Positions 23,246-64,000 of a stretch of 64,000 nucleotides of DNA are shown here, in pieces. Where the stretch lies: contig CP064982.1 of the NCBI GenBank assembly GCA_016699595.1, forward strand, positions 203,647-267,646, in the 5' to 3' direction. The notes under the pieces were generated by a model. It was not told the origin of the DNA and made no database searches. It saw only the letters and a program-made list of their open reading frames with translations. This DNA is from a bacterium (GTDB lineage: Bacteria; Patescibacteriota; Dojkabacteria; GCA-016699595). Numbering within the stretch: position 1 is the stretch's first letter; each line of letters begins with the position of its first letter. Made by a program: the position numbers and the translations under genes.

Positions 23246-26200
23246 CTATAATTTAAACAAAGGGTTTAGATAAAGGAAAATAACATTTCTCTTTCCAGTA
23301 TCAGCTAGTTTTATCTCAAATTGAACTGGAGTAGGATCATTCAATCTGTTAGGTAAAATATTACCTGAATTGGTTCTATTATTCAGGTCATCTGGTTGAT
23401 CCGTTCCCACATTATTGTTATTTCCATTGTAACCACTTTGATTTTCTGTATTATCATCTGAAATATCAATTACGGTCTCACTCAGATCAGAAGTGCCTTT
23501 TATTGTTGCAGAATTCCAAAATACACTTCTACTAGTACCCACAATCTTGAGATCAAGAGTAATGATTATAACTCCCTCTTCTAATATCCCTAAACTATCT
23601 GTACCAATCAAAACATTGTCATCTGTTACTCCGTCGTAAAGAGAATTTATTTGAAAATTATTATCAGTCGTTGCGACAACATTACTTATTTCTATTGGTA
23701 CTGGGAAAGCTAATCTCAAGTTATCTTTAACTTGTAAGTTATGCAACTTCATATTTCCCACATTTTTGAATCTTAATTCATATTTAATTTTGAATTGATT
23801 CGAACCTAAATCAGTCGAGGATATCAGTTTCTTAAGCAAACCTATCTTAGGACTTGAAACCATTGCATTCGCAGGATCATCTGAAGATATACTATCAGGA
23901 ACCGTACCATCAGTAAGTGGGGATGGTGTTGCTGTAACAACTCCTGTATTTGTATGCTGACCATTTTCTGGAGCTATTAGTGTAGCTGTACAAATCATGC
24001 TCTCCATAGGTAGTAATATAGTTTTGGGGCAGTTGATCTCACTAGTATTTATATGAGTGTCAGAAACTACAATATCATTCAATGTTATATTACCAATGTT
24101 AGTTACTTCAAATGTAATTTCCATCAAGGTTCCGGCACTGATATATATTCCAGGTTCTACATTAGCGTCTTCACCATTTATTCTTTTGATAATGTTTATA
24201 GCTGGATTGATAGATAATGCATTCGCAGGATCGCTGTCACTAATAGGTGACGGATGTAAGTTGTTAGGTGTAGGTGATGGAGTTCCCATTACAGTCCCAC
24301 TATTGGTATGCTGAATACCACTTGCTGGAGATGTGAAGCTCGCAGTACATGTCATGGTTCCACCCACAGCAAGTACATTGCTAGGACAATTGATTTGAGA
24401 AGTAGCAATCATGTCATCTGCTATGACTATATGGTTTAGTTGAACATTGCCAGTATTTGCAACTTGATACTCGATAGTTAAAGGAGTGTTCGGTAACACG
24501 TAAATTCCCGGAGTAATATTTGCGTCATTACCATTTATCAACTTGATTAAACTTATTCCAGGTAATGCTGGTACAAATGCATTTGCTGGGTCAGAATCAG
24601 TAACATTTGCAGGCTGATTCCCATTTGGCAATGTAGGGGGTGTGCCGGTGACATTTGCAATATTTGTATGTTGCCCTGCATTATTAGGTAAAGTAAATAC
24701 ACTAGTACATGTTATAGATTCTCGAGGAATCAATGTAGTTTTGGGGCAGCTAATATCTGATTCGCTTAATACATTATCTTCAAGAAGAATATTATTTAAA
24801 ATTGTATTTCCTGTATTTGTAATTTCAAATGTAATGTTTAGCTGAGAACCACCTTCGTAAGATAGTCCTGGAGTAGAATTTGCATCATCGCCATTTATCC
24901 TTTTGACGACTGAAATGCTAGGACTGCTACCTACAAATCCAGCATCAATAGTTATATCTGACTCACCGATATCCAAAGTAATAACTTGGCTTATACCATT
25001 TGCAAGTGAAGCATCTGAATCTTCAGTGTCATTACCAGTATTTGGATAAGTATAAGTATAACCAGCTGGTGGCGTGAATCTTATTTTATAATCTCCATGT
25101 ACTAAATTTTCAAATAAATATAATCCATCATTCCCAGTGACAACAGAATCAATAACTGTATTATTTATATCTATCAGCTCTACAAGTACTCCAGCTAATG
25201 GTAATTCCCCGCTATCGATTATCCCATTAAAGTTACTATCAACCCAAACATAATCTCCAATTTCTCCAAGAAGCACTTGAACAGAAACATTATTTGATAC
25301 CGCAGGTAAAGCAAGTCCGCTTGCCCTAAGTATAAATTGATTTGTGAAAATATCACCATTCATATTTGGAGAATTAGTCTGAGGCTTCATAACTAATTTG
25401 TATATAGAACTATCACCTCCATTTAGTAAACCAGTTTGAATTCTTAACCCGGTTACTTCATTTAATGTAGCTGGACATCCTATATTTCCAAATTGCAATT
25501 GAGTACACCAAACAATGGCTGGGTTGATAGAGATCGGATCAAGGTCATTAGGTAGTGACAGGGTGCTTCTGTCATGTTTCGTGAAGAGTATGTTTGTAGG
25601 AACAACTCCTGACTCGTAAGATATACTTTGTAGTATAGTTGTTCCATGATAATTTGTAGCAGGTGTTCTCTGATCTCCGTTCCAAGGAAGCCAATCTATA
25701 AGATCAGTACTAGGTACAGGATTTTGACCCGGATTCGTCATGCCCAACGAAAACTCAATTGTATCTAATGGCTCAACAATTGGCTTGATTGTTGACTTTT
25801 CAACTGCAAATGCAGATGTGTTTATAACTTGTAATGTAGCCGTTGATGTTCGCCAAGATTCCATAGAAGGATCATTCTCGGCAGATATTAGGGCACTATT
25901 TGTTTTCATAGTTCCACTAGGAATCAAATTGCTGATGTCAGTCCTGAAAGCAATAAATTTGAATAGTTTACCAACTTCTACATCCCCATAGTTCCAAGTG
26001 AGAGTACTAGTACCATCAACATTGTAAGTAATGCTAGGTTCGCAATTTATAGGTGCTATTTGAAAAACCATTGATATAGGTAAGTTGCATAAAGCTGTTC
26101 CGGGTATATAAGCTATCCCTTGTGGTAAGGTATCTGTCAGTACCACATTTTGTGCAAATCCAGGTGGAGTAGCACCCATAGATTCAGTGTTTGGCCATAA

Positions 26201-30905: not shown

Positions 30906-32765
30906 TTGAGCCTACTTGAGAAAAACGAACTAGATACTGCGAGTTATATCAAAATAGTTAGAAAATATAGTCGAGATGGAAATTCAACATTCAGCAAAGA
31001 TGACATATTGAAAGAAATTGATGTATTGCTAAGGGTAAAAGGTGAATATTGCTTCCTTGGGGAAGCTGGCGAGCGAAGCGAACCTGAAGGGGTTTTGAAA
31101 AACGAATTAGAATCTCTCAAATCTGCAATCAAACTCAAACCAATGCGAACTGAATCAGGAGTTACTACAGTTACGGTTCTGACTAAACCTTATGCTTGCC
31201 CTGGACAATGTATATTTTGTCCAAATGATGTTCGGATGCCAAAAAGTTATATCGCAACTGAACCTGGAGCTCAAAGAGCTCTGATGTTCAGGTTTTCTCC
31301 ATACGCTCAAGTTTGGAATAGACTTAAAGCTTTGCAAAATATAGGTCATCCAACCGACAAAGTCGAAATGCTTGTACTTGGTGGAACTTGGACGAGTTAT
31401 AAAGAAGATTATAAACTATGGTTTACTTACAATCTTTTCAAGGCTATGAATGATTTTGGAGATGGAATTTGTGATGAGAGGTTAATGACAAAGCAAGATA
31501 TAAGTGAGATATTTGAAAATGATTTTAATGATGATATTAGGAAAAATTACTCCTTCACATGGGAAGGTGTCCAGCAAAGCAGGACAGAAGGGGTTAACTC
31601 TTTAATTGATAAAAGTAAAACTAATTTTATTGAATACAACAAACTTCTCCAAACTCAAGAATTTAAGGCGTGGGAAAAAGAAAATGTTGTTGCAGGAGAT
31701 TTTATGAATTCTCCTACATGGGAAATTTTGTTTGAAGAACAAAATCGAAATTCGAAAGGTAAATGTAGATGCGTGGGTTTAGTTTTTGAAACTAGACCAG
31801 ATAGAATTACACAAAAAGAAGTTTTGACTTTACGAAAACTTGGTGCTACAAAAGTTCAACTAGGAATTCAGATCCTAAATGATGAAATTTCAAGTTTGAA
31901 TAAACGAGGTGAGAATATTGAAGATGCTATGAAAGCTTTTGAATTACTTCGACTTTGGGGCTTTAAAATTCATGTTCATATGATGCCAAATTTACTTGGT
32001 GCAACTCCAAAGCTAGACTTGGAAAGTTATAAGTTACTCGTTAATGATCCTCACTTTCTTCCAGATGAAATAAAAATTTACCCAACAAGTTTGATTGCAA
32101 ATACTGAACTTGAGAATGAGTATAAAGCCGGAAACTGGAGACCTTATGAAACTCAAGAATTGGTTGAATTAATCGCTCAAATGATTGCAGAAACTCCAGA
32201 ATATGTAAGGTTAACTCGTATTATTCGAGATATACCAAGTCAAGAAATTGAAGCTGGAAATAAACTTACTAACTTAAGACAAGTCGTTGAGAAGTATATG
32301 CAAGATAATGATATGCAAGATCAAAATATCAGAGCAAGAGAAATTAAACAGGAAAAAGTAACTTTTGTCGATTTGGAATTGAAAATAGTTGAATATCAAA
32401 CTACAATTTCAAAAGAATTGTTTTTGGAATATGTAAAGCCCCCATTGAAAAAGGGGGGCAAGGGGGATTTTATTGCTGGGTTTTTAAGATTGAGTTTGCC
32501 TATTGATAATATTTCTGCCATGATTCGAGAAATTCATGTTTATGGTCCAAGTTTGGAAATTAGCAAAGATAGTTCTGGCGATGCTCAGCATCTTGGACTT
32601 GGGACTAAGTTGATTGAAAAAGCAAAAAAAATTGCGAAAGATTTGGGTTATAATAGCTTGAAAGTAATTTCAGCGATTGGAACTAGAGAATATTATGCCA
32701 AAAGAGGTTTTGAAATGACGGAAGATGGACTTTATCAATTGACAAAACTAAAAGTTAATTTCTAA
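30906..32765 (+). CDS. elp3: Elp3 family tRNA uridine(34) carboxymethyl-modification enzyme (radical-SAM domain plus C-terminal GNAT/KAT domain)
   Basis: Radical-SAM CxxxCxxC in ACPGQCIFCP, the Elp3 core (LVLGGTWTSY, FETRPDRIT), and a C-terminal GNAT fold (HLGLGTKLIEKAKKIA...YYAKRGFE). The TTG start is uncertain. Confidence 0.8.
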   Translation: MSLLEKNELDTASYIKIVRKYSRDGNSTFSKDDILKEIDVLLRVKGEYCFLGEAGERSEPEGVLKNELESLKSAIKLKPMRTESGVTTVTVLTKPYACPGQCIFCPNDVRMPKSYIATEPGAQRALMFRFSPYAQVWNRLKALQNIGHPTDKVEMLVLGGTWTSYKEDYKLWFTYNLFKAMNDFGDGICDERLMTKQDISEIFENDFNDDIRKNYSFTWEGVQQSRTEGVNSLIDKSKTNFIEYNKLLQTQEFKAWEKENVVAGDFMNSPTWEILFEEQNRNSKGKCRCVGLVFETRPDRITQKEVLTLRKLGATKVQLGIQILNDEISSLNKRGENIEDAMKAFELLRLWGFKIHVHMMPNLLGATPKLDLESYKLLVNDPHFLPDEIKIYPTSLIANTELENEYKAGNWRPYETQELVELIAQMIAETPEYVRLTRIIRDIPSQEIEAGNKLTNLRQVVEKYMQDNDMQDQNIRAREIKQEKVTFVDLELKIVEYQTTISKELFLEYVKPPLKKGGKGDFIAGFLRLSLPIDNISAMIREIHVYGPSLEISKDSSGDAQHLGLGTKLIEKAKKIAKDLGYNSLKVISAIGTREYYAKRGFEMTEDGLYQLTKLKVNF

Positions 32766-33599
32766 CCTATCAATTGGACTTTGAATTTTCCTTTTATGAG
32801 CATCAGTAATATGTGTATATATTTGTGTAGTTTTTATATTTTTATGACCCAATAACTCCTGAACCACCCGGATATCTATACCATTTTCTATCAAATGCGT
32901 TGCAAAGCAGTGCCTAAGAGTATGAACGCTCGCAGGCTTATTTACTTCGGAACTCAATAATGCATTTTTAAAAACTTCTTGTACACTTCTTACATTATAC
33001 ATTTCACCACTTCTTCCCTCAAAAATATATTTCTTAGGTTGATATTTTACATAATACTTTCGAAGCAATAATAAGATGTTCGAAGATAACATAACTTCTC
33101 TATCTCTATTACCTTTCCCTCCACGAATCAATATTGTCATCCTTTTGGAATCAATATCCGCTATTTCCATCTTCACTAGTTCTGATACTCGTAATCCTGC
33201 ACTATAAATCAGGGAAACTATTGCCCGATGTTTTATATTTTTGATGCTTTGTATGATCTTCTTGATATCTTCCTCTGATAAAACAAATGGCAATTTATAA
33301 ACTCGTCTATCTGGATAAATATAATCAATTTGAATTTCCAGTTTAAGTACATATTTATAAAATAATTTTATTGAGCTAATGATACCCTTCTGTGCAGACT
33401 GAGAAATATTCTGTTCATTAATTTTGTAGCAAATATATTGTAATACGTCACTTTCGGAAATGCTATTAATTTCTTTGTTTGCAAAATATTTGAGGAAGTC
33501 TTTGATATAGGAAGAATAAGCACGAATAGTATTTGGCGAGTATCTCTTTACCTTCAATATTTCGATGAACTTCGTGATTAGTGACTCTGGCGGATTCAT
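32748..33599 (-). CDS. tyrosine-type site-specific recombinase / phage integrase family
   Basis: Catalytic tail HTLRHCFATHL...LLGHKNIKTTQIYTH (R..H..R...Y). Its 3' end overlaps the elp3 stop by 18 nt. Confidence 0.85.
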   Translation of the reverse strand: MNPPESLITKFIEILKVKRYSPNTIRAYSSYIKDFLKYFANKEINSISESDVLQYICYKINEQNISQSAQKGIISSIKLFYKYVLKLEIQIDYIYPDRRVYKLPFVLSEEDIKKIIQSIKNIKHRAIVSLIYSAGLRVSELVKMEIADIDSKRMTILIRGGKGNRDREVMLSSNILLLLRKYYVKYQPKKYIFEGRSGEMYNVRSVQEVFKNALLSSEVNKPASVHTLRHCFATHLIENGIDIRVVQELLGHKNIKTTQIYTHITDAHKRKIQSPIDRLEINF

Positions 33600-40779: not shown

Positions 40780-41388
40780 ATGGAAAACTCCAACGAACAG
40801 TCGCAAGGACAGACCATAAAGTGTCCTTCGTGCAAAGAAGCTATTCAGCTTGGCGCAAAGAAATGCAAACATTGTGGCGCAGATTTGAGAAATTGGTTTG
40901 TTAGGCACAAAGTCATAACTGGTATACTGATTATTATTGGAATTGGAATTATTGGAAGCGCTATGGGTGGCAATGAAACAAAAAATACTTCTGACAGCTC
41001 GTCCACCACTAACAATGTACAAGAGGCTAAGTCTACTGCAGATGTAAAAGCTGAAGCAGACACTAAAGTAGCAGAAAGCGTGCCAGCTGAATATAAATCT
41101 GCTTTGAGCCAAGCAGAAACTTATGCCAACACAATGCACTTGTCAAAGCAGGGCGTCTACGATCAGCTTGTTTCAGAGTATGGTGGAAAGTTTCCAAAAG
41201 AAGCCGCACAATATGCAATTGATAATGTAAAAGCTGATTGGAACGCAAATGCGCTTTCTCAAGCAAAAACTTACCGAGATACTATGCACTTATCGACAGC
41301 AGCAGTTCGTGACCAGCTCATTTCAGAATATGGAGCAAAGTTTACAAAAGTAGAGGCAGACTATGCCATTCAGCATCTCAATGATTAG
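40780..41388 (+). CDS. Ltp-like protein: N-terminal zinc ribbon (CPSC...CKHC), TM helix, and two tandem host-cell-surface-exposed-lipoprotein (HcsEL) type repeats
   Basis: The repeats ALSQAETYANTMHLSKQGVYDQLVSEYGGKFPKEAAQYAIDN and ALSQAKTYRDTMHLSTAAVRDQLISEYGAKFTKVEADYAIQH resemble the phage TP-J34 Ltp superinfection-exclusion repeat family. GC is about 40%. Confidence 0.55.
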   Translation: MENSNEQSQGQTIKCPSCKEAIQLGAKKCKHCGADLRNWFVRHKVITGILIIIGIGIIGSAMGGNETKNTSDSSSTTNNVQEAKSTADVKAEADTKVAESVPAEYKSALSQAETYANTMHLSKQGVYDQLVSEYGGKFPKEAAQYAIDNVKADWNANALSQAKTYRDTMHLSTAAVRDQLISEYGAKFTKVEADYAIQHLND

Positions 41389-45976: not shown

Positions 45977-46057
45977 ATACCGAGGACAGGACTTGAACCT
46001 GCATGCCTTTCGGCGCTTGCTCCTAAGGCAAGTGCGTCTACCATTTCGCCACCTCGG
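45977..46057 (-). tRNA. tRNA-Leu (anticodon UAG) with a long variable arm
   Basis: Minus strand: GCCGAGG-TG-GCGAAATGGTAGACGC-A-CTTGC CTTAGGA GCAAG-C-GCCGAAAGGCATGC-AGGTTCAAGTCCTGTCCTCGGTA. Cloverleaf with a 7-nt anticodon loop CU-UAG-GA. Local GC is elevated. Confidence 0.8.
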
Positions 46058-50724: not shown

Positions 50725-53277
50725 ATGTCTACACCAAAACTTACAGCAGAACAGCAATATTTAGATCTGAAATCAAAATACCCTGATTGTATCTTATTTT
50801 TTCGTATGGGAGATTTTTACGAAGTTTTTGATAATGATGCTCGTGAAATGAGTAAAGTTTTAGGTTTAACTTTGACAAGTCGAGATAAAGGTGAGAAAAA
50901 ACGACCAATGGCTGGAATTCCACATCACGCGCTGAACCAATATTTAGGAAAAATTGTAAATTTAGGTTACAAAGTTGCAATTGCTGAGCAAATGGAAGAT
51001 GCCAAGTTTGCCAAGGGAATCGTGAAAAGGGAAGTTACAAAAGTTGTAACAGCAGGAACTTTGATTGACGAGAAAAATTTACAAGAACAAGAATCAAACT
51101 TTATTCTAGCTTTGAATTATTCTAAGTATAAAAACAGTATTGTTTGGGGTTTGAGTTATCTTGAACTTTCAACTGGAGAATTCAAACTTATAGAACTTGA
51201 AACTAGTCAAAATTATTTAGCTCAAAATAAACTACCAAGTAAAATAATTGACAAAATTTCAACTTTGCAACCAAGAGAAATATTACTTCCAGAAAAACTG
51301 AAGTACTTCCTTACTCCGATCATCCAAACAAGACTTACTTTGATCGAAGAATTCCAGTTTGACTTTGATATAAGCTATAAAAATATAATCCAACATTTCA
51401 AACTTGCAAATTTAGTTGGATTTGGTATTGAAAATTATAAAATTGCAATTGGTGCAGCTGGAGTTATATTGAATTATGTCAAAACTAGTGAAAAAACTGA
51501 ACTTAGCCATATCACAAAACTAGTTTTTGATAACTTTTCAGAAAATATGAATTTTGACTTTGCAACTATACGAAGTCTGGAACTTATTGAACCTATAAAT
51601 TTATCAAACTTAAATTCAGATAAACCTACTACTTTGCTTGGAGTTTTGGATAAAACTAAAACTCCGATGGGAAAAAGACTGATTCGAAGTTGGGTTTTGA
51701 AACCTTTGACAAATTTAGCTCAAATCCAAAATAGACTTGATAATGTCGAAAACTTTTTGAAACTAGATAATGATAATAAATTAGTTATTTCAAATTCGCT
51801 GGATAATATTTATGATATAGAGCGAATTTGCGGAAGAATTGGACTTCAAACAATTTCACCGAAAGATTTTGTAGCACTAGATGGTTCTATATCTGAAATA
51901 TTAAATTTAATTCAAACTTAAACTAAATTAAATTCTGAAAATAAGCAAGGCGAATTAAAAGAAGGTTTAATATTAAATAAATTAATTAAGTACTTTGATG
52001 AATTAAATATAATTAAAAACAAAATTAGCTCATCCCTACTTTCAAATCCAAGTTTTGAGATAAATCAAGGAAATATTTTTCAAGATAATTATAATTCTGA
52101 AATTGCAGAACTTCGAAATATTTCAACAAATTCAAAAGATTGGATATTAAATTATCAAGCAGAACAAATTACTCAAACACAAATATCAAACTTGAAAGTG
52201 AAGTTTAATTCTGTTTTTGGATATTTCATAGAAGTATCAAATTCGCAAACTTCAAAAGTTCCAGAAAATTATATCCGCAAACAAACTATTGCTGGGGGTG
52301 AAAGATATATAACTTCTGAATTGAAAGACATGGAGCAGAAAATCTTAACTGCAGATGAAAAGTTGATTGGTTTAGAAAAAGAATTATTTCTAAAGTTTAG
52401 AGAAGAATTTATACAACATATTCAAACTTTGCAAAAAGTATCACAAATTATAGCAGAAGTTGATACTTTATTTTCTTTTTCAGAAGTTGCAAAGGAAAAT
52501 AATTACACAAGACCTATATTTACTGAAAAATCGCAAGTACTAGCTATTACTTCAAATCGTCATCCAGTAGTTGAAAAACTAGTTGAAAACTTTACTTCGA
52601 ATGATTTAAATCTGAATAGTCAAAACTCAATGATGATTTTGACAGGTCCAAATATGTCTGGAAAATCCACATATATTCGGCAAGTTGCACTTTTAGCTAT
52701 AATGGCTCAAATTGGAAGTCTTGTTCCTGCTGAAAGTTGTGAGCTAAGTCTAGTTGATAGAGTTTTTACTCGAGTTGGAGCAAGTGATAATTTGTCAAAA
52801 GGTGAATCAACTTTCATGGTTGAAATGAATGAAACTGCAAATATTTTGAATAATGCGACTTCAAATTCACTTTTGATTTTAGATGAAATTGGACGAGGAA
52901 CTTCGACTTTTGATGGAGTTGCTATAGCTTGGTCAGTCATGAAGTATATTTACGAAAATCTGAAGTGCAGAACTTTGTTTGCAACGCACTATCTAGAACT
53001 TACTGAACTTGAGAAAAAGTATGATGGTATTTCAAATTATTCCGTTCAAATTGCTGAAAAAAATGATCAAGTGATTTTTATGCATAAAATAATTCCTGGT
53101 AAAGCGCAGAAATCTTTCGGGGTTCATGTTGCAGAAATTGCAGGAATGCCAAATGAAGTTATAAATAATGCTAAGGAAATTTTGAAATCTTTTGAAGATA
53201 GTCAAAATAAAGTCAAAAAGGTAGTAAATAAAAAAATAAATTCAGAAAAAATTCCTCAAATGGGATTGTTTGAGTAA
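50725..53277 (+). pseudogene. mutS: DNA mismatch repair protein MutS interrupted by one in-frame TAA at 51919-51921
   Basis: Track ORFs 50725..51921 (domain I, GDFYEVFDNDA) and 52192..53277 (ABC ATPase GPNMSGKST...DEIGRGTSTFDG) are in the same frame. The 270-nt gap between them translates without further stops into MutS-like clamp/lever sequence. Confidence 0.8.
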
Positions 53278-53342: not shown

Positions 53343-53762
53343 ATGATTGCAAAAAACAAACATATAATTTATAAACCAAGCATTAAGTTTGCAAGGCAGA
53401 ATAGAAAAATTATGAATAAGTATGAAGTTTTTGTTTGGGTAGCTCTGAAGATTCTGAATAAAAAGTATAGATACGGTTTTAGTAGACAAATTTGTTTTGG
53501 ACCATATATATTAGATTTTTATTCCAAAAAGTTAAAAACAAATATTGAAGTAGATGGTGAAACTCACGAATTTAGGGGTAATGAAGATATAATAAGGGAT
53601 GAATATGTAAAAAGATATGGAATAAAGATAATTAGAATAACAAATTCTGATGTTCTCAAATCATATAGCTTTCTTGATGAATATCTAAATCAAATTATAG
53701 TAAATTCTACTAACCTATCCGTCCCGCAAAGCGAGACACCTTTCCTAAAAGGAAAGGAATAA
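53343..53762 (+). CDS. DUF559 family (Vsr-like PD-(D/E)xK) endonuclease-domain protein, free-standing copy
   Basis: FSRQICFGPYILDFYSKKLKTNIEVDGETHEF...DEYVKRYGIKIIRITNSDV matches the DUF559 core (RQ.pIg.yIvDFy...l.IEvDG..H...D..R...L...G..viRf.n.dv). Bracketed by GC-rich hairpins at 53291-53325 and 53723-53762. Confidence 0.7.
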   Translation: MIAKNKHIIYKPSIKFARQNRKIMNKYEVFVWVALKILNKKYRYGFSRQICFGPYILDFYSKKLKTNIEVDGETHEFRGNEDIIRDEYVKRYGIKIIRITNSDVLKSYSFLDEYLNQIIVNSTNLSVPQSETPFLKGKE

Positions 53763-56234: not shown

Positions 56235-57848
56235 CTATTGAATTATCCCTCTTCCGAAGCAAACTTCGCCATTGTAGAAAACTGCACTTTGACCTGAAGA
56301 GATTCCACGAACTGGTTCTGCGAAGTTTAGCTCATTATTTTCTAAGTTTAATGTTGCTCGAACAGGTTTTGCTCTATAGCGAACTTCAACTTCAAGATCA
56401 ACCAACCCACCTCGTCCTTCGGACACTCCTCCAATGGAGGAGAATAATTTTGAATTTATGAAATGAAGGTTTTCAAGTTGGCAACTATTTTTATATAACT
56501 TCGGATTATCAGTTCCTTGAACTACATACAAAATATTTTTTTCTAAATTCTTGCTACTTACAAAATATGGTTTTTGATGTGGCGAAATTACTTTGATTTT
56601 ATTCAGACCTTCTCGTTGACCTATAGTATAAAATGCAATCCCATCATGCTCACCTACTTTAAGCCCACTGTCTTCATCTACTATAATTCCAGGTTTATAA
56701 GCGATATTATTCCTCAAAAACTGAGCAACATCAATATCTCCTATAAAACAAATTCCTTGAGAATCTTTCTTTGTTGCAATTGGAAGTTCAAACTCTTCTG
56801 CTAATTTTCGAACTTCACTTTTTTGTAAATGACCAATTGGAAATAGTGTTTTGCTAAGCTGAAATTGATTTAGATCAGACAGAAAATAAGACTGATCTTT
56901 GTTTTGATCCAAACCTTTTAGTAAAAAATATTCAACAGATTTAGATTGATTATTTACATTAGCAAATTCTACAGTTGGGCCTTCCTGATAAGGAGGGTAA
57001 ATTTCGCTTTGCGAAATTTGGGAGGTTAAATAATTTTTAATTTTAGTGCAAACAATTTCAAAATTATACTCTACATCATTACTTTCAAATCTTAAAACAT
57101 TTATTCCTAGACTATTTAAATAATTCGTTCTTACTTTATCATATTCTAAACCTTCAGTAGTAAAGTGTTCTGCACCATCAAGTTCTATTGCAAGATTATA
57201 TTTTGAACAATAAAAATCTACTATGAAATTTCCTATTGGTTTTTGTCTTGTAAATTTATAATTTTCTAGTTTTGATAAGAAGTCATACCAAAGATGATTT
57301 TCAGACCTAGTTGCTCGTTTGTGATGTCTATTTAATTTTGTCAAGTTTGTATTGTAATTAACCCACCGTCCCGCTTCGCTGTCCACCTCCCTTGACAGGG
57401 AGGCCACCAAATTTGGAGTGATATTGTCAGTACTTGACTTTACTCTTGCATAATGTCCTGTTGCGATCATATCAGCGTCTTCCTCTAATGCTCTATTTAG
57501 AAAAGTTCCAAACTTGATTTTACTATTGCAAAGTATATCTGGGTTTGGAGTTCTACCTGCTCTATATTCATCAAAAAAATAATTTACAACTTGTTCTCTA
57601 TATTCTTTTTCAAAGTTATATATCTTCATCTCAATTCCAAGTTTGTCGCAAACTAACTTCACATCTTCTACATCCTTTTCCCATGGACAATCAGTTTGAA
57701 TTCCAAAATCTTCACCTGACCAATTTTTCATGTAAACTCCAACTACATTATCTCCATTTGATTTCAAAAGTGCTGCAACTACTGAAGAATCAACTCCTCC
57801 GGACATTGCAACGAATATTGTTTTTTTGCCGCTGTCTATAACATTCAT
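56235..57848 (-). CDS. mnmA: tRNA-specific 2-thiouridylase MnmA carrying an in-frame ~170-aa insertion that contains a complete DUF559/Vsr-like endonuclease domain
   Basis: PP-loop SGGVDSSV, ATGHYAR, then the insert, then EYFLLKGLDQNKDQSYFL (canonical LRGLD.NKDQSYFL) and GICFIGD. The insert contains FTRQKPIGNFIVDFYCSKYNLAIELDGAEH...GINVLRFESNDV. Confidence 0.85.
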   Translation of the reverse strand: MNVIDSGKKTIFVAMSGGVDSSVVAALLKSNGDNVVGVYMKNWSGEDFGIQTDCPWEKDVEDVKLVCDKLGIEMKIYNFEKEYREQVVNYFFDEYRAGRTPNPDILCNSKIKFGTFLNRALEEDADMIATGHYARVKSSTDNITPNLVASLSREVDSEAGRWVNYNTNLTKLNRHHKRATRSENHLWYDFLSKLENYKFTRQKPIGNFIVDFYCSKYNLAIELDGAEHFTTEGLEYDKVRTNYLNSLGINVLRFESNDVEYNFEIVCTKIKNYLTSQISQSEIYPPYQEGPTVEFANVNNQSKSVEYFLLKGLDQNKDQSYFLSDLNQFQLSKTLFPIGHLQKSEVRKLAEEFELPIATKKDSQGICFIGDIDVAQFLRNNIAYKPGIIVDEDSGLKVGEHDGIAFYTIGQREGLNKIKVISPHQKPYFVSSKNLEKNILYVVQGTDNPKLYKNSCQLENLHFINSKLFSSIGGVSEGRGGLVDLEVEVRYRAKPVRATLNLENNELNFAEPVRGISSGQSAVFYNGEVCFGRGIIQ

Positions 57849-58039
57849 AAGTTTCAATAATTTACACAAAAATTATACCACTTCCATAGGGGTTTAACTT
57901 ATTTTAGATAAAGTTACAATATTTCTCAAAAAATGCTTGACTTATACCTCTTTTTTGGTACAATGACTTTGTCAACCAACAATATTGTCTTTGACTATGT
58001 CATTCGATGATATTGTAGTTGGAAAATCTTTGGTTTTTC

Positions 58040-58267: not shown

Positions 58268-59647
58268 ATGCAAAGAACACTCACATCACAACTTAAAGAA
58301 AATACAGGTCAAGAAGTCATGCTGCAAGGTTGGCTGCACAATGTACGAGATCTTGGCAAATTTGGTTTTATCATTATTCGAGATAGAGGAGGTCTGGCAC
58401 AATGTGTAGTTGAAGATGCTGAAGAACTGCGTAAACTTGATAACTTATATACAGGCACAATAATTCAAATTGAAGGTAAAGCTATAGAGAATGAGAAATC
58501 AAAGTATGGATATGAAGTTTCAAATTCAAAAGTTACTGTCTTGAATCCAGTTACCTACCCTAGTCCAGTCGATATTTCAAAAGAAGACTTGAATGTAGAA
58601 CTAGATACTGCATTGAATCTTAGATCTATTGTACTTCGACATCCTAAACAGCAAGCTATCTTTCGAGTTCAAGCATCATGTATGAAAGCATTTAGGGAAT
58701 CTATGGAGAGGCAAGGATTTACAGAGTTTGTTTCACCGGTTTTGATAGGAGTGCCATCCGAATCAGGAGCATCAGTCTTTGAAGTTAATTATTTTGGCGA
58801 AAAGGCATACTTAGCACAATCTCCTCAGATCTACAAACAAATTATGACTGGAGTTTTTGAAAGAGTGTTTACTATAGCAAGAGTATTTCGTGCTGAGAAA
58901 CACAATACTAGCAGACATCTTATGGAAATTGTTCAAATGGATGGAGAAATGGGTTTCGTCAATAATTATGATGAAGTCTTGCAAGTCATAGAACAAGTAG
59001 TTCGAGACATCGTCAACTATATTGCAGAGCATAATGTTGCAGATTTGAAAATCCATGGTGTGAATTTACCAAAACTACCTTCTGGCAGATTTCCAAAAGT
59101 GAAAGTTAAAGAAGCGTTGCAAATAATTGAAGAAAGAACTGGCAAATCTGCCAATCGTGAAGAACTTGATTTGGAACCTGAAGATGAAAGGGAAATTGCA
59201 AAGTATATTCTAGAAAAGTTTGACAGTGATTTTGTTTGGCTATTGAACTTCAAAAGGGATAAGAATTTTTATACTTGGAACAATGAAGTTGGAACGGTAG
59301 ATTCAGTTACTGATAAAACAGCTGATCCTGATGAATCACTTTCATTTGATCTCGAATGCAGAGGTTTAGAGTGGTTGTCTGGTACGCATAGAATTCACAA
59401 CTTTGAAAAACTTTATACAAACTTAATTGCACAAGGATTGAAACCTGAACATTATGTTCACTACCTTCAAGCATTCAAATACGGTATGCCTGCGGAAGCT
59501 GGATTTAGTTTTGGTTTAGAACGACTGACCAAGCAAATATTTGAACTTGATAATATCAGAGAAGCTACAAATTTCCCTTGTGATCTAAATCGGGTAGCGG
59601 GATATCCAATGAAGTCAGAAAAGAGTTGGGGAATTGATACAAACTAG
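58268..59647 (+). CDS. aspS: aspartyl-tRNA synthetase, archaeal/eukaryotic-like short form (possibly non-discriminating); AsnRS not excluded
   Basis: Class II motif 2 FRAEKHNTSRHLMEIVQMDGEMGF, motif 3 GFSFGLERL, and an N-terminal OB fold. 459 aa. Confidence 0.75.
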   Translation: MQRTLTSQLKENTGQEVMLQGWLHNVRDLGKFGFIIIRDRGGLAQCVVEDAEELRKLDNLYTGTIIQIEGKAIENEKSKYGYEVSNSKVTVLNPVTYPSPVDISKEDLNVELDTALNLRSIVLRHPKQQAIFRVQASCMKAFRESMERQGFTEFVSPVLIGVPSESGASVFEVNYFGEKAYLAQSPQIYKQIMTGVFERVFTIARVFRAEKHNTSRHLMEIVQMDGEMGFVNNYDEVLQVIEQVVRDIVNYIAEHNVADLKIHGVNLPKLPSGRFPKVKVKEALQIIEERTGKSANREELDLEPEDEREIAKYILEKFDSDFVWLLNFKRDKNFYTWNNEVGTVDSVTDKTADPDESLSFDLECRGLEWLSGTHRIHNFEKLYTNLIAQGLKPEHYVHYLQAFKYGMPAEAGFSFGLERLTKQIFELDNIREATNFPCDLNRVAGYPMKSEKSWGIDTN

Positions 59648-59722
59648 AAGATTTTGAATGAAACTTACATATGTGGTATATAAATACTTGCATATCTAGA
59701 TACGTGTGTTATAATCAAAATT

Positions 59723-60154
59723 ATGAATGACACAAATACAAAAAAACAAATCACTGATGAATTGAAAAAATTCAAAACTTCTTACAAAGATTTACAGGAA
59801 AAAGCGAGGGTAATATTTCCTGACATGAATGCGAAAGAAAGACAATGGTTTGAAAGTTTTCTATACAACCTAAATGTTGAATTTGATAATTTTGCAGATA
59901 ATCTAAACGAAATTTTGGATAGTATCAAAGAAGAAGATAAAAAATTGCCAAATGTCTTCAAAACTCTAAATTCGAGACAATACAAAATCTTGACTTATCT
60001 CAAAAAGTATCCAAATATTGTGAGAAGAGAATATTGTACAATGTTCAACATATCAGCTATGACCGCGTTCCGCGACTTGAAAGATCTAGAACAAAAAGGT
60101 TTGATATTTGGAATGGGTGCTGGAAAAGGAAGAAAGTTTGGTTTGAAGGATTGA
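59723..60154 (+). CDS. putative winged-HTH DNA-binding protein
   Basis: C-terminal LNSRQYKILTYLKKYPNIVRREYCTMFNISAMTAFRDLKDLEQKGLI resembles HTH_24/DeoR-type recognition modules. Confidence 0.45.
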   Translation: MNDTNTKKQITDELKKFKTSYKDLQEKARVIFPDMNAKERQWFESFLYNLNVEFDNFADNLNEILDSIKEEDKKLPNVFKTLNSRQYKILTYLKKYPNIVRREYCTMFNISAMTAFRDLKDLEQKGLIFGMGAGKGRKFGLKD

Positions 60155-60220
60155 TGAAACTTGATAATTTATCAACTTGTTTTGAGCTTTTGATTCTAAT
60201 TCTAGAATCAAAAGCTCTTT

Positions 60221-60772
60221 TTATATCAAAATTGGTAGGTCATTCAAATAAGGACTAAGACCAAGCAGTTCTCTCATAAAAAATGGGATACCTGCTAGAC
60301 CGAATACTAGCATAGTTATTACAAGCATTCCAGTAAGAATTGCATCTTGTATTTCTTTGAAAGTTTCACTCTTGTTATCCTTTGTTTTTGCATTCATAGC
60401 AGCTAAAACTATTTTTACAAAGACCATAAGAAGTATAATTGGTATAAAGATTCTAAGTATAGAGGTTGTAATATTGTTTTTCGCATTATCTGCATTTACT
60501 AAATTTGAATATATACATCCAGCTGAAGTCCATTGAGTATTGCCTGTTGGTGAAGTAGTACTTGTATTTCCTGGTGCTGAATTTTCAGATAAACATATAC
60601 GACAGTATTGAAGATCTCTTGACTTGTCTAATGCTCTTTTTGGATCATTTCCATAAGTAGCATCAACATATCCGTTGCAAATACTATCAATAGTCAACAC
60701 TGGTGGAACTGCATATATTTGACCAAAAAAAATAGCATTTATGACAAGGTAAAGGCTAAAAATTTTAAACAT
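60221..60772 (-). CDS. secreted/membrane protein with N-terminal signal peptide and C-terminal TM helices, unknown
   Basis: Start MFKIFSLYLVINAIFFGQIYA (signal). Ser/Thr/Asn-rich middle, two C-terminal hydrophobic helices. Confidence 0.45.
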   Translation of the reverse strand: MFKIFSLYLVINAIFFGQIYAVPPVLTIDSICNGYVDATYGNDPKRALDKSRDLQYCRICLSENSAPGNTSTTSPTGNTQWTSAGCIYSNLVNADNAKNNITTSILRIFIPIILLMVFVKIVLAAMNAKTKDNKSETFKEIQDAILTGMLVITMLVFGLAGIPFFMRELLGLSPYLNDLPILI

Positions 60773-60922
60773 GTTTTTGCTAGTGAAAAAAGTAAATGTC
60801 ATTGTTGTAAAGTTTGTAGAAAAGATGGCATACAATTCATGTTTGATTTTATATTTATTGTTGGTAAATATCAACTCTTTTTGTTATAATCTATACGCTA
60901 TTATTTACATATACTTGTTTGA

Positions 60923-63900
60923 ATGCCGTTTATTAAAGGACCTGAAAATACATATGGATCGCATGAGGTGGTTAAATATTTGCCAGGCTCTTCCGGTGAT
61001 CCAGAAAAAATTCTTGCTGAAGTAAAGTCCTTTCTTGGAGACTCAATGGATGCAAATCTACCTGTCCCTCGATGGGCACCAGAAAGTATTTCGACAATTA
61101 TGAGAGCAGCCGAAAGAGCGAAAGACAAGAATATTCGGAAGCAATTAGAGGCAGTTCTGTATTTTATTGATATAATACCTTTGGTATCTGATGCTTTGAC
61201 TCATAGTGCCGTCGGATTGGATGGCAGGATAAATGAAATAGCTAAGAAAGTTGGAGAATCTACGACATATGGAGATCATGCTAAATATCTTATATCCTTA
61301 TTTGAGGGTGATTCTAGTAAACAAAAGAAGTTAGAAGAAGCACTTTTTTTTGATTTTGGGGAATTAGATCTCACCATACCTCATAAAGCATATAAATCCT
61401 ACAAGTCGAAGCCTGGCTATACTGCAATTTTTTGGCACATTCCTGAAAAAGTTGCTTTTGATTTGACTAATCTAAGTGTTTTATTTTCAAATGCTGACCG
61501 AAATAGATCTGAGCTTTTAACTAGGCTTGGCAAAGATTGCCAATCTTCTTTGGGAGTAGACCCCGAAAATGATCCAAGACTTTCTGTTACTACTATTGAA
61601 TCGACTTGCAATATCCGAGATATAATATATGGCCTGCATGAGATAGGTCGTTTAAATGGATTGTTGAGAGCACATGTAAACGATGCATTAATTGTCAATA
61701 TGCAGACTCTTATGTCTGCTGGAGATAGCTTAGTTCATGACGAGAGATCAGCTCAACCAGTACCTTTAACTCTTTTAGTCATTGTTCAGGAAGTATTAAA
61801 CAAAATATTTCCCAGTTATGGGGGTGGAGTTGGATATACTTCAGCCTTAAAAAAGATTGAAGAATCTCATAGATTGCATGATTTGTTTACTCGATCTATC
61901 TCTGAAGGTGCAATAAGAGGTCTAAACCGTAGACTCAGACCAACCCTTGATGGAAAAGCTTTGAATCTTCCTGATCTTGTGGACTACTTAGTTAATTCAC
62001 CTGAAAACCGGAGCGATCGGTATGGTGTTTTGGTTGACGTTGCCTTTGATGGAGATGAAGAGGGGAAAAACAACTTTGTTTTGTCTCTTCATGGAAGAGA
62101 GCCAGTAATTGAGCATCTTGTTAATGAAAACTTTAATGTTTATACAGGGGTAGGCTATCAAGGGTTTGTCAAAGCTATAAGGGAACCTAAACTGGAAAAG
62201 ACAGCTACTATCTTGGGTCGACAGGGGACAATGAGACCAACTGAAATTGCAAGTGCTATTGCATCAGATATCGTTAAAAATTATGGAGGAAAAACATCAG
62301 AACTAATGGCTGCTTATGAGAAAGTTTTTGATGCATTTCGTATAATTAATTATGGACCAAATTCGCCGTTGAAACATTTTCTTGAGTCATGTGGAATATT
62401 TGTTGCCCCCGGCTTCAAAGCAACAGGATCGTCAAATACATTTTATGATGAAATTCTGAGTCTTCTTGAGTTACTTAAAGAAAATAATATTCCATTTTTG
62501 GTAACAGAAGGGCAACAAGGTTACACCTTACAGATTGGTTTAGGCGATATTACAGATAGCGCTGATAACATAAGTAGAATTAGAAAAAGTGAAAAGGATA
62601 TTTATATTTCTGGACGAAATTTTCTTGAACTCGTTTCTGTAAGGTCGAAGTTTTCAGATTCAGATTTAGAAAAAGTCTCACCATATCTGTTCGGTTTGAT
62701 GTTAGGATCTAGAAATGAATATGGTTATTTGCCTTATGGTATTCTAAATATGGTTGATTTGAATCCTGATAAGTTGATATGGCGATATACTGCAGCTATA
62801 CAACATATTTTGACATCTGGTTACTTAGATTCAATAGTAGATGCAAGAGCGCAAGGCAAAAGAGTTGCTTTTGATCCTTCTTTTGGATTGGTTTCTGCAG
62901 TTAGGCAATGGCAGGAAAATGCATTTGCATACTTGACAAAGCAGCAACTTACCGTAAGATTAACCCGGTATGTAGTTAATTATGGAGCTAAAAAGGATGT
63001 GATGCATGATGCTATAAAAAAGTTTATCGAGGACAGGCAGAAACTAAAGTTAGGTGATATTAAATATCACTCTATAGAAGATTTCATTATAGCTTTGAAA
63101 TCTGATCCATCTTTAATAGAAATATTTTATGACGATGAAATTGGAGCATATATATTTCCTGATGCAGGAGATTCTATCCCTGGAATTATTTTTAGAATTA
63201 GTGATATAGTAAATTCAACAAATAGAACAGATTTTTATAAAAAAATGCTACCAGTTATTGCCACATTTTTTGAAAGATTGACTGGTGCAGATCCATCATA
63301 TAAGATATCTAACATTGTAGAATCAATCAATGCTAATGTTATGGGTTTTTTTGATGCAGCAGTAAATAAGCTTACATCATTGATAGTCGTTCTATCTGTA
63401 CTAGATTTTGCTACAGTAGGTGGAGATAAACACTATGAATATAGTTATCTAGGAATATCCAAAGAAACCGCAGCCACAATTTTGTTTGCTCAGTTAGACT
63501 ATACATGGAAGAACTTTTCAAAATCACTAGAAGCTTATGCAGTTTATGGTAACTCCTATTTAAGGAATAAGGGTGAGTTTGCTGCTGAAGCTGCAAAAGG
63601 ATTCTTTGATAAGGCCAAATTAAAGAATGCATTGGGACAAGGGTTTGTACAAGTATTTTCAAAAGAAAACTTTGCATCTCTTTTTAGAGATATATTACCA
63701 GATCCAAAAGATCCTCAACAACTCATAGTAGCTATAGCTTCACCATTTCTATCTGTTTTCTTATATACCAATGTAGTAAAAACTATTTTGTCTGGTATTG
63801 AAAGTTTTTTTGGTATAGCTGATCCGATCATGTCTGCTAATATATCATTATTTCCTTTAGGTACAATCTTTACATATATGACTTTGATATCTTTGTTTAT

Positions 63901-64000
63901 GGGGCCATTTGTAAGGTTGAAGGAATCAGCAGTAGTAGATAGAGTTAAAGACATAAAAAGTAGTAACAATTTTGAAAAAATAGGGTTAACTTTAGGTAGA
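60923..64000 (+). CDS. large hypothetical protein (>1025 aa, continues past the window end), GC-elevated, C-terminal hydrophobic segments; not in the ORF track because no stop lies in the window
   Basis: Manual translation from the ATG at ~60923 runs uninterrupted to position 64000 (MPFIKGPENTYGSHEVVKYLPGSSGDPEKILAEVKSF...). GC is about 38-42% against a ~30% background. The C-terminal region has hydrophobic stretches (LIVAIASPFLSVFLYTNVV..., LFPLGTIFTYMTLISLFMGPFV). Confidence 0.6.
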   Translation, partial: MPFIKGPENTYGSHEVVKYLPGSSGDPEKILAEVKSFLGDSMDANLPVPRWAPESISTIMRAAERAKDKNIRKQLEAVLYFIDIIPLVSDALTHSAVGLDGRINEIAKKVGESTTYGDHAKYLISLFEGDSSKQKKLEEALFFDFGELDLTIPHKAYKSYKSKPGYTAIFWHIPEKVAFDLTNLSVLFSNADRNRSELLTRLGKDCQSSLGVDPENDPRLSVTTIESTCNIRDIIYGLHEIGRLNGLLRAHVNDALIVNMQTLMSAGDSLVHDERSAQPVPLTLLVIVQEVLNKIFPSYGGGVGYTSALKKIEESHRLHDLFTRSISEGAIRGLNRRLRPTLDGKALNLPDLVDYLVNSPENRSDRYGVLVDVAFDGDEEGKNNFVLSLHGREPVIEHLVNENFNVYTGVGYQGFVKAIREPKLEKTATILGRQGTMRPTEIASAIASDIVKNYGGKTSELMAAYEKVFDAFRIINYGPNSPLKHFLESCGIFVAPGFKATGSSNTFYDEILSLLELLKENNIPFLVTEGQQGYTLQIGLGDITDSADNISRIRKSEKDIYISGRNFLELVSVRSKFSDSDLEKVSPYLFGLMLGSRNEYGYLPYGILNMVDLNPDKLIWRYTAAIQHILTSGYLDSIVDARAQGKRVAFDPSFGLVSAVRQWQENAFAYLTKQQLTVRLTRYVVNYGAKKDVMHDAIKKFIEDRQKLKLGDIKYHSIEDFIIALKSDPSLIEIFYDDEIGAYIFPDAGDSIPGIIFRISDIVNSTNRTDFYKKMLPVIATFFERLTGADPSYKISNIVESINANVMGFFDAAVNKLTSLIVVLSVLDFATVGGDKHYEYSYLGISKETAATILFAQLDYTWKNFSKSLEAYAVYGNSYLRNKGEFAAEAAKGFFDKAKLKNALGQGFVQVFSKENFASLFRDILPDPKDPQQLIVAIASPFLSVFLYTNVVKTILSGIESFFGIADPIMSANISLFPLGTIFTYMTLISLFMGPFVRLKESAVVDRVKDIKSSNNFEKIGLTLGR

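Follow-up and report, generated by a model that had tools for sequence, protein, structure and literature searches.

At the right-hand end of the window, which is the whole stretch of 64,000 nucleotides of DNA that was analysed, lies an open reading frame that runs past the last nucleotide. This raises the question of whether the frame is a real gene and, if so, what kind of protein it encodes and what role that protein may play. The part of the frame that falls in the window is:

60923..64000, + strand: codons 1-1026 of the 1260 codons of an orphan gene (open frame and match to QQR93791.1)

From the ATG at 60923 to the window end at 64000 on the forward strand, 1026 codons follow one another without a stop, and the codon right before this ATG is itself a stop. 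The first-pass annotation had described an ORF of more than 1000 aa running off the window, and this description was confirmed; no stop breaks the frame between 60923 and the window end. The translation matches residues 1-1026 of GenBank entry QQR93791.1 with 100% identity. This entry is the hypothetical protein IPJ91_01380, which is 1260 aa long and encoded on a 761,814-bp contig. The last 234 residues were taken from the deposited protein sequence, and the total length of 1260 aa would place the stop codon ∼705 bp past the window end. Because a random codon in this AT-rich DNA would be a stop with a probability of ∼7.6% (our own estimate from base composition), a chance origin of an ORF of this length is ruled out. 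The GC content at the three codon positions (GC1 46%, GC2 36%, and GC3 23%) follows the pattern of the genome's real genes, and the amino-acid composition of the protein has no obvious bias. In addition, the same gene is present with 96-99% identity on two more Logan contigs, both of them short (2235 and 940 bp). These data demonstrate that IPJ91_01380 is an intact, real gene of a Patescibacteria (CPR) bacterium that encodes a 1260-aa orphan protein. The CPR affiliation is based on the adjacent aaRS, whose best relatives are found in Saccharibacteria-labelled and Dojkabacteria MAGs (52-67% identity), and on the source contig of 761,814 bp.

One further observation concerned the genetic code. 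The tsaD gene in the same window contains an in-frame TGA at a position that we take to be a conserved Gly, which prompted the idea that the organism could use genetic code 25 (UGA=Gly). This idea was rejected, as TGA ends 11 of 50 ORFs, full-length PheS included, and read-through past TGA only appends junk. Since genetic code 25 was rejected, the end of the protein at 1260 aa needs no revision on code grounds.

Hydropathy analysis according to Kyte-Doolittle (KD) revealed four strong transmembrane (TM) helices, two of which are within the window (aa 934-952 and 974-992) and two beyond it (aa 1031-1049 and 1060-1078), as well as weaker hydrophobic segments at aa 809-827 and 1126-1144. The features of the protein that map to the window are:

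60923..63721, + strand: predicted cytoplasmic N-terminal region, aa 1-933 (hydropathy, motif and self-BLAST checks, low-confidence AF2)
63347..63403, + strand: weakly hydrophobic helix, aa 809-827, which contains K and D (Kyte-Doolittle 19-residue mean 1.71)
63722..63778, + strand: TM helix 1, aa 934-952, LIVAIASPFLSVFLYTNVV (KD mean 1.98)
63842..63898, + strand: TM helix 2, aa 974-992 (KD mean 1.68; loop-charge analysis of the full protein)

The C-terminal hydrophobic region reported at first reading is therefore present, with one pair of strong helices on either side of the window end. TM1 and TM2 make up hairpin 1, with a joining loop of 21 aa that contains one K/R. The two short loops of the protein contain 1 K/R in total, as compared to 7 and 6 in the predicted cytoplasmic loops. 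The N-terminus, MPFIKGPENTYGSHEVVKYLPGSSGD, is hydrophilic, two Asp residues are present in the earliest segment with KD>1.5 (aa 75-93), and no strong TM helix appears before aa 934. By hydropathy, then, the protein has no N-terminal signal peptide or signal anchor. The segment at aa 809-827 is probably a buried or amphipathic helix and not a TM span; accordingly, the N-terminal part is soluble, as first proposed, although its length would be nearer 930 aa than the ∼850 aa originally given. Based on hydropathy and the positive-inside rule, IPJ91_01380 is predicted to be an integral membrane protein with an N-in/C-in topology and two TM hairpins, in which ∼930 N-terminal and ∼180 C-terminal residues are cytoplasmic. 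The C-terminal tail of ∼180 aa follows TM4 and is outside the window. The earlier suggestion of a membrane-inserting protein is supported insofar as these two hairpins would make the protein integral to the membrane.

Walker A (regex across 1260 aa), HExxH, GxSxG, CxxC, GGDEF, and LPxTG motifs are all absent from the protein, and no internal repeats were detected by self-BLAST. An alignment for structure prediction was impossible because homologs are absent, and single-sequence AF2 gave models with pLDDT values of 38 (aa 1-1026) and 55 (aa 1-160). In these low-confidence models, the N-terminal region is mostly alpha-helical with a few beta hairpins, and a Foldseek search of the PDB with both returned 0 matches at E≤1e-3. 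Bacterial dynamin-like, atlastin, and mitofusin-type proteins are hairpin-anchored large cytosolic membrane remodellers, and the orphan protein resembles them in its predicted N-in/C-in arrangement, long helical cytosolic region, TM hairpin, and cytosolic tail. However, a dynamin-like or atlastin-like GTPase was rejected, as the 1260 aa contain no Walker A sequence (GxxxxGK[ST]) and no dynamin or GTPase Pfam match.

The first-pass annotation had found no recognisable domains, and the profile libraries agree: Pfam and NCBIfam returned 0 families even at E≤1 to 10, both for aa 1-1026 and for the full 1260 aa. Likewise, no PADLOC-DB v2 family was matched at E≤1 by the orphan protein or by a 217-aa neighbour, while a nearby HTH protein gave generic wHTH matches only. 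The PHROGs search produced just two weak matches to the orphan protein (E=0.012). The only match among the PDB sequences was non-significant (E=2.5), and the full protein matched no PDB sequence. No match was found in phage and plasmid collections by tblastn, and no relative was found in contig scans of viral contigs (IMG/VR), GTDB genomes, and JGI metagenomes. An exhaustive phmmer search of 1.84 billion representatives recovered only three fragments that are 96-99% identical and correspond to the gene itself. The full protein is absent from these matches because the representative of its cluster in the collection is a 106-aa fragment. Queries with aa 1-1026 and aa 901-1260 in a word-indexed 5.8-billion search also gave no significant match. 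We also examined synteny through the adjacent aaRS, which identified 39 loci in GTDB genomes and JGI metagenomes (best identity 67%). None of the 39 contains a relative of the orphan protein, or a large ORF in which a long soluble N-terminal part precedes TM hairpins at the C-terminus. Together, these searches strongly indicate that the protein, already in GenBank as a 'hypothetical protein', has no detectable relatives.

The gene had also been described as having a GC content ∼10 points above the local background, from which horizontal acquisition was proposed. The measured difference is +3 points (35.2% for the ORF vs 32.2% in the rest of the window), which corresponds to the 95th percentile of same-size windows and to z=+0.93 among the 38 other window ORFs. 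The GC content also matches that of ClpB (35.5%), TyrRS (36.3%), and the adjacent aaRS (36.2%). GC3 is at the gene mean (23.0% vs 23.6%, z=-0.19), and the synonymous-codon log-likelihood (z=-1.39 vs the 38 other window ORFs) is within the host range and not atypical. Codon usage of the ORF is thus native, and a GC-based case for horizontal transfer was rejected. Native codon usage therefore points to a long-resident gene, or to same-lineage exchange by homologous recombination. The true compositional outlier of the window is an Ltp-lipoprotein gene at 40780-41388.

The compositional argument for acquisition fails; accessory status, in contrast, is supported by comparison with a sister strain. 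This strain is represented by a single Logan contig of 3 kb (L015, from SRR30164251). The features needed for the comparison are:

59723..60154, + strand: winged-HTH (DeoR/MarR-like) protein, 143 aa (Pfam)
60221..60772, - strand: IPJ91_01375, a divergently transcribed 183-aa protein (translation; identical annotated protein in the source genome)
60692..64000, no strand, right boundary outside the window: strain-variable segment (blastn and binned identity vs L015)

The reverse complement of L015 (positions 1-2395) aligns by blastn with window positions 58303-60694 at 97.9% identity. Binned identity then falls from 98-100% to about 55% past ∼60691. From there on, L015 has an unrelated ORF in the divergent position, a different promoter region, and, for the membrane protein next to it, a different signal peptide. 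Within IPJ91_01375, the breakpoint is close to aa 26/27, which, judged by eye, is approximately the end of its hydrophobic signal sequence; over aa 27-183, the copy in the sister strain matches at 93%. The winged-HTH protein is conserved at 98.6% amino-acid identity (tblastn vs L015), and its gene is therefore outside the variable cassette. The alternative ORF in L015 (156 aa) occupies the equivalent divergent position, has its own -10 box, and matches nothing in Pfam or in viral contigs. A shuffle test of the orphan protein against this ORF (Smith-Waterman z=-0.5 and 0.9) led us to reject distant homology between the two. Because L015 is unrelated past ∼60691 despite the 97.9% identical flank, the comparison supports that the orphan gene belongs to a strain-specific accessory cassette and is not core machinery, with the reservation that L015 is a single 3-kb contig and could be a chimeric assembly.

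The immediate neighbours are as first described, an HTH protein (the winged-HTH protein above) and a secreted membrane protein. The latter, IPJ91_01375, consists of a signal peptide, a ∼90-aa Cys-containing ectodomain, and a C-terminal TM hairpin, and has no pilin or VirB2 match in Pfam or NCBIfam. Two putative regulatory features flank it:

60184..60217, no strand: 15-bp hairpin followed by a T-run, between the convergent HTH and membrane-protein genes (terminator scan)
60861..60915, + strand: promoter-like elements (consensus scan; these are consensus matches, which do not by themselves prove function)

The terminator scan found 2 such structures vs 0.5 expected, and the hairpin is predicted to keep transcription of the HTH gene separate from that of the cassette. 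The promoter-like elements include TTGGTA-18-TATAAT with an upstream TG at 60861-60890 and a TATACT box at 60910-60915, which ends 7 nt before the ATG. Of 38 genes, 15 have a box at 5-11 nt from their ATG on the upstream side, compared with 5 of 38 at a control distance, and the spacing of the TATACT box is putatively of a leaderless type that is common in the genome. The wider neighbourhood is of a housekeeping nature (mraZ-rsmH-ftsL-like, mnmA, and aaRS). No defence or mobile-element genes were recognised beside the orphan gene within the window, and a Pfam scan of window ORFs of at least 120 aa recognised no secretion-system genes. The closest tRNA and tyrosine recombinase genes lie at 45977 and 32748-33599, respectively.

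Our preferred reading, for which we estimate a probability of roughly 0.4, is that IPJ91_01380 encodes a cytoplasm-facing, TM-hairpin-anchored orphan protein that is part of a strain-variable cassette and has an arms-race role, the function being assigned by analogy. The ∼930 helical N-terminal residues would face the cytoplasm, with no signal peptide, and the four helices of the two TM hairpins would anchor the protein such that the ∼180-aa C-terminal tail returns to the cytoplasm. The gene is transcribed divergently from the small secreted, membrane-anchored IPJ91_01375, and the orphan gene, the shared promoter region, and the signal-peptide end of IPJ91_01375 appear to have been replaced together in the sister strain. 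CPR bacteria depend on a host cell, and the arms-race role may be phage defence, abortive infection, or host-cell interaction at the inner face of the membrane. Such a role is suggested because the segment turns over rapidly, the protein has no relatives, and a large cytosolic domain is combined with TM hairpins. The cytosolic part could be a sensor or scaffold, and the TM hairpins an anchor or a membrane-perturbing effector. Some known anti-phage defence proteins, such as Kiwa KwaA, Zorya ZorA, and the TM effectors of CBASS and Pycsar, combine TM effector helices with a cytosolic part that acts in sensing or as a scaffold. The orphan protein is similar to these in its cytoplasm-facing bulk with a few TM helices, in a segment that differs between strains, and in rapid turnover. 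Unlike them, it has no typical partner genes that could be recognised and is much larger than usual TM effectors, so that the link consists of architecture and variability only. A known anti-phage defence system was rejected, given the empty PADLOC-DB v2 result (0 families at E≤1). A bolder version of the preferred reading, in which the protein is the founding singleton of an unrecognised CPR class of cytoplasm-facing, TM-hairpin-anchored conflict proteins, in a cassette that swaps divergent gene pairs and the partner's signal peptide between near-identical strains, seems doubtful to us.

Two other explanations merit consideration, though we regard each as unlikely. The protein could be a lineage-specific housekeeping membrane scaffold that has diverged beyond recognition, such as a VirB6/TrbL-like channel, a pilus or competence platform, or an envelope or division organiser. 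The housekeeping neighbourhood and the native composition are what such a scaffold would predict, CPR genomes contain many highly divergent envelope proteins, and the signal peptide and TM hairpin of the partner are reminiscent of pilin or VirB2-type proteins. VirB6/TrbL-type T4SS proteins are polytopic, with very long VirB6 paralogues in Rickettsiales, and the orphan protein shares with them long soluble regions with TM helices and a position beside a small signal-peptide and TM-hairpin protein (VirB2/TrbC-like). However, VirB6/TrbL proteins have five or more TM helices spread along the protein, whereas the orphan protein has four strong ones. Also against a scaffold, a sister strain with 98% identical flanks contains unrelated sequence in its place, and neither relative nor synteny was found even where the aaRS is 52-67% identical. 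VirB6/TrbL was rejected as an assignment, as Pfam gave no match at E≤10, and thus none to a TrbL/VirB6 model, and no VirB4/VirD4 ATPases were recognised in the scanned window ORFs; the partner is similarly without a pilin or VirB2 match.

Alternatively, the gene could be cargo of a prophage or other integrated mobile element, the main part of which would lie past the window end; the segment would then be an insertion and not an allelic cassette. Consistent with this, similarity is lost sharply at ∼60691, the right end of the variable segment lies past the window, and orphan status is typical of mobile-element cargo. What makes this improbable is that PHROGs offers nothing beyond E=0.012, the phage, plasmid, and IMG/VR searches are empty, GC3 and codon usage are native, and no integrase or tRNA is adjacent. 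Moreover, a breakpoint inside a gene and a different sister ORF with its own -10 box look like replacement.

Far less probable is the toxin/effector reading of the first-pass annotation, that is, a secreted or injected protein of the Tc-toxin, RHS/YD, or MARTX type that inserts into target membranes. The protein resembles these toxins in its size (>1000 aa), its hydrophobic helices near the C-terminus, its lack of annotation, and its variable genomic setting, which is common for polymorphic toxins. Unlike them, it has no family matches, repeats, or export signal, and its positive-inside pattern fits a resident N-in/C-in protein of the inner membrane that is mostly cytoplasmic. Each family proposed for comparison was rejected on profiles and self-BLAST: the Pfam and NCBIfam libraries include RHS/YD, Tc, and RTX models, and none was matched at E≤1 to 10. 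For RHS/YD-repeat toxins, the internal repeat is missing; for the Tc complex (TcA/TcB/TcC), the upstream genes encode the HTH protein and the 183-aa membrane protein; for MARTX/RTX toxins, repeats are absent and no T1SS genes were recognised in the scanned window ORFs, nor were other secretion-system genes. A Sec-exported or surface protein was rejected on the hydrophilic N-terminus, as judged by hydropathy only. Finally, a spurious or decaying, non-functional ORF is scarcely credible, for although homologs were found nowhere and mutS and tsaD in the same window are each broken by a single in-frame stop, so that the assembly or genome carries some damage, the 1260 unbroken codons in 32% GC DNA, the gene-like GC1>GC2>GC3 order and unbiased composition, the well-formed TM hairpins with a positive-inside pattern, the promoter-like elements at genome-typical spacing, and the recurrence of the gene on the two Logan contigs all argue against it.

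As it stands, IPJ91_01380 adds one to the many large hypothetical proteins of its lineage. It is useful in practice because it offers a defined target, for which a topology prediction, a partner gene, and an alternative allele are at hand. In uncultivated Patescibacteria, little is understood of phage resistance or of how the host cell is attached to and exploited. Should the cassette reading be true, a reduced-genome CPR bacterium would be spending ∼0.5% of its coding capacity (on the 761,814-bp contig) on a large, fast-turnover membrane protein, and such genes would be the likeliest to mediate phage resistance or the attachment to and exploitation of host cells.

The large open reading frame at 60923-64000 (+) (the target, IPJ91_01380) is free of stops over its 1026 codons in the window, in keeping with the first-pass annotation. 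ATG 60923, which a stop codon immediately precedes, is the first possible start. The full-length product was located via a 90% cluster common to one fragment from an exhaustive search and is GenBank QQR93791.1 ('hypothetical protein IPJ91_01380 [bacterium]'), a 1260-aa protein encoded on a 761,814-bp contig. The window ORF is identical to its residues 1-1026 (100% across all 1026 residues), and the gene thus extends ∼705 bp beyond the window end, with 234 residues outside. A TATACT box ends 7 nt 5' of the ATG, and a TTGGTA-18-TATAAT arrangement with TG upstream is found at 60861-60890. The neighbors are an HTH protein and a secreted membrane protein, as earlier described, and the following features lie on the upstream side:

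60184-60217, hairpin of 15 bp plus T-run, which sets the HTH gene apart from the target side
60221-60772, minus strand, gene for a 183-aa membrane protein, start confirmed by an identical GenBank protein

Based on the promoter-like boxes and the hairpin, the target is likely driven by its own promoter, within a short divergent region common to the 183-aa protein gene. Across the window, Shine-Dalgarno sequences are nearly unused (1 of 27 ATG-start genes), and a -10-like (TATAAT-like) box ends 5-11 nt before the ATG in 15 of 38 genes as compared to 5 of 38 at a control distance; among these 38 ATG-start genes, the box-to-ATG distance peaks at 6-8 nt. Taken together, the near-ATG boxes and scarce Shine-Dalgarno sequences suggest that leaderless mRNAs are widespread in this genome.

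The sole relative of the 183-aa neighbor (P0006) is encoded on L015, a 3079-bp Logan contig from SRR30164251 taken to represent a sister strain. Read in the orientation of the window, L015 matches 58303-60694 at 97.9% identity, a stretch that takes in a class II aminoacyl-tRNA synthetase (aaRS), the HTH gene (98.6% identical in aa), the terminator, and the larger part of the membrane protein gene. When binned at 150 bp, identity stays largely within 97-100% as far as ∼60550, with a single bin at 94.7%, and drops past ∼60691 to about 55%, a value typical of AT-rich sequences that are unrelated. The break falls near aa 26/27 of the 183-aa protein, roughly at the end of its signal sequence as judged by eye. 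Past it, the signal peptide encoded by L015 differs from that in the window, as does the intergenic region, which has a TATAAT box of its own, and L015 carries a divergent ORF (MLDKNLDNEK...) that spans 156 codons or more. This ORF does not resemble the target significantly (Smith-Waterman against shuffles, z = -0.5 for aa 1-250 and z = 0.9 for the whole protein) and has no match in Pfam or viral contigs. The mature part of the 183-aa protein (60221-60772, minus, versus L015 583-1158) is 93% identical between strains at the amino acid level, as compared to 98.6% for the HTH protein and 97.9% nucleotide identity for the flank, and its ectodomain may evolve faster than its surroundings.

The target is thus located where near-identical strains differ, as seen on this one contig. 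Because L015 diverges past the break, the target and the promoter region, along with the partner gene's 5' end, appear to behave as a single replaceable cassette. This replacement, observed on one short contig, is the only positive evidence for the target being accessory. It also weakens the reading of the target as a divergent housekeeping scaffold or secretion component, which we consider unlikely.

The first-pass annotation had placed the GC of the ORF ∼10 points above background, which was not borne out by measurement (35.2% versus 32.2% in the remaining window). Compared to the 38 other window ORFs, the target has a GC z-score of +0.93, a GC3 of 23.0% (mean 23.6%, z = -0.19), and a synonymous-codon log-likelihood z-score of -1.39; its codon usage is native. 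ClpB, TyrRS, and the adjacent aaRS equal or exceed it in GC. The slight surplus is confined to codon positions 1 and 2, which identifies amino acid composition as its source. The gene that truly stands out in composition within the window is 40780-41388 (+), which encodes a zinc ribbon and two Lipoprotein_Ltp domains ('host cell surface-exposed lipoprotein') and has a GC of 41.4%, a GC3 of 34%, and the lowest codon-usage likelihood among all ORFs. Horizontal acquisition is more plausible for this gene than for the target; its family includes a prophage superinfection-exclusion protein. The highest-GC stretch (about 37-38%) is 23246-28282 (-), encoding a likely surface adhesin of 1678 aa; its C-terminal third contains SdrD_B, three DUF7507, and SpaA-like domains, and some 1000 residues at the N terminus are unannotated.

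The window represents ordinary chromosomal DNA of a small AT-rich genome, with Pfam-recognized genes for many aminoacyl-tRNA synthetases, ClpB, ClpP, GrpE, IF3, TsaD, Tgt, KsgA, MutS, mraZ-rsmH, an ftsL/DivIC-like gene, and MnmA. Two housekeeping genes are broken. In tsaD, 13558-14574 (-), a single in-frame TGA (14032-14034) splits the gene, and read-through would add 157 aa to give full-length TsaD. The stop lies in the DDAA-G-E motif at a conserved Gly position, where GGA to TGA is one substitution. Genetic code 25 was considered because of this Gly position and was rejected: TGA ends 11 of 50 ORFs, including full-length PheS, it is a true stop in 10 ORFs besides tsaD, and read-through yields only junk. 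In mutS, 50725-53277 (+), a single in-frame TAA (51919-51921) separates 50725-51921 (domains I-III) from 52192-53277 (III-V) in the same frame, which is open again from 51922; the split is either a nonsense mutation/pseudogene or an assembly error. Two such genes per 64 kb is notable and reflects either real decay or consensus errors. MnmA, 56235-57869 (-), has a DUF559 (Vsr-like endonuclease fold) inserted at aa 183-281 that interrupts the HUP domain, and a stand-alone DUF559 ORF, 53343-53762 (+), lies 2.5 kb from its gene. In the 1062-aa LeuRS, 18472-21660 (-), the catalytic body and the anticodon-binding domain are separated by an inserted GNAT acetyltransferase domain (aa ∼781-873). A 283-aa tyrosine recombinase, 32748-33599 (-), with Phage_integrase and SAM-like N-terminal domains, overlaps the 3' end of a radical-SAM/GNAT gene (30906-32765) by 18 bp; it may be XerC/D or may be left over from an integrated element.

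The nearest aaRS-anchored genomes and contigs are Patescibacteria (CPR), with aaRS identities of 66% for Saccharibacteria-labelled MAGs, 52-58% for Dojkabacteria-labelled MAGs, and 67% for a JGI contig; none has a comparable gene beside the aaRS. The target also proved to lack recognizable domains, as had been noted, with no Pfam or NCBIfam match at E ≤ 1 to 10. PHROGs gave nothing significant (two matches, each E = 0.012), nor did PADLOC, and PDB sequences gave one non-significant match (E = 2.5) for aa 1-1026 and zero for the full protein. An exhaustive phmmer search of 1.84 billion representatives returned three matches, all 78-131-aa fragments with 96-99% identity, whose ends depart from the window protein as expected of frameshifts or contig ends; these are the target gene itself on short Logan contigs. 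IMG/VR, GTDB representative genomes, JGI metagenomes, and phage and plasmid collections (tblastn) contained no significant match. At the level of sequence, the target is a true orphan. That it is cargo of a mobile element reaching past the window end is improbable given no phage or plasmid signal, although this reading overlaps in part with our preferred one of a strain-variable, hairpin-anchored membrane protein.

Hydropathy of the full 1260 aa supports the hydrophobic helices reported close to the C terminus:

aa 934-952, 974-992, 1031-1049, and 1060-1078, strong TM segments, forming two hairpins
aa 809-827 and 1126-1144, weaker hydrophobic segments

The two short hairpin loops contain one K/R in total, as compared to 7 at 993-1030 and 6 at 1079-1125, and no N-terminal signal sequence is present. 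By the positive-inside rule, these features fit an N-in/C-in topology, with ∼930 N-terminal and ∼180 C-terminal residues predicted to be cytoplasmic. No internal repeats and no Walker A, HExxH, GxSxG, CxxC, GGDEF, or LPxTG motifs were found. Structure prediction without an alignment (pLDDT 38 for aa 1-1026, 55 for aa 1-160) gave low-confidence models that are mostly alpha-helical with few beta hairpins, and Foldseek with these models returned no match at E ≤ 1e-3. A secreted Tc/RHS/MARTX-like toxin is very improbable for a protein in which neither repeats nor domains nor an export signal were detected and whose predicted topology is cytoplasmic. The gene is intact and encodes a large protein with well-formed predicted TM hairpins; a non-functional ORF is the least probable reading of all.

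The best explanation is that the target is a strain-variable, hairpin-anchored membrane protein with an arms-race role, to which we assign a probability of roughly 0.4 as a whole; its descriptive part is firm, its functional part weak. Since GC3 is native and the cassette was replaced rather than simply inserted, the cassette may have been exchanged within the lineage by homologous recombination and not recently imported from a distant donor. A protein whose large cytosolic part is anchored by TM hairpins and that turns over fast in such a small genome would best fit an arms-race function such as phage defense, abortive infection, or host-cell interaction. In possible working mode, the designs most similar to it are those of TM-effector defense proteins, long VirB6-type proteins, and dynamin-like proteins anchored by hairpins; none of their defining features testable on the target was found in it. 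CPR genomes commonly encode large orphan membrane proteins, about one-quarter of the window ORFs scanned lack a Pfam match, and the target is already deposited in GenBank as a hypothetical protein. We therefore rate it as not categorically new and as belonging among strain-variable accessory membrane proteins.
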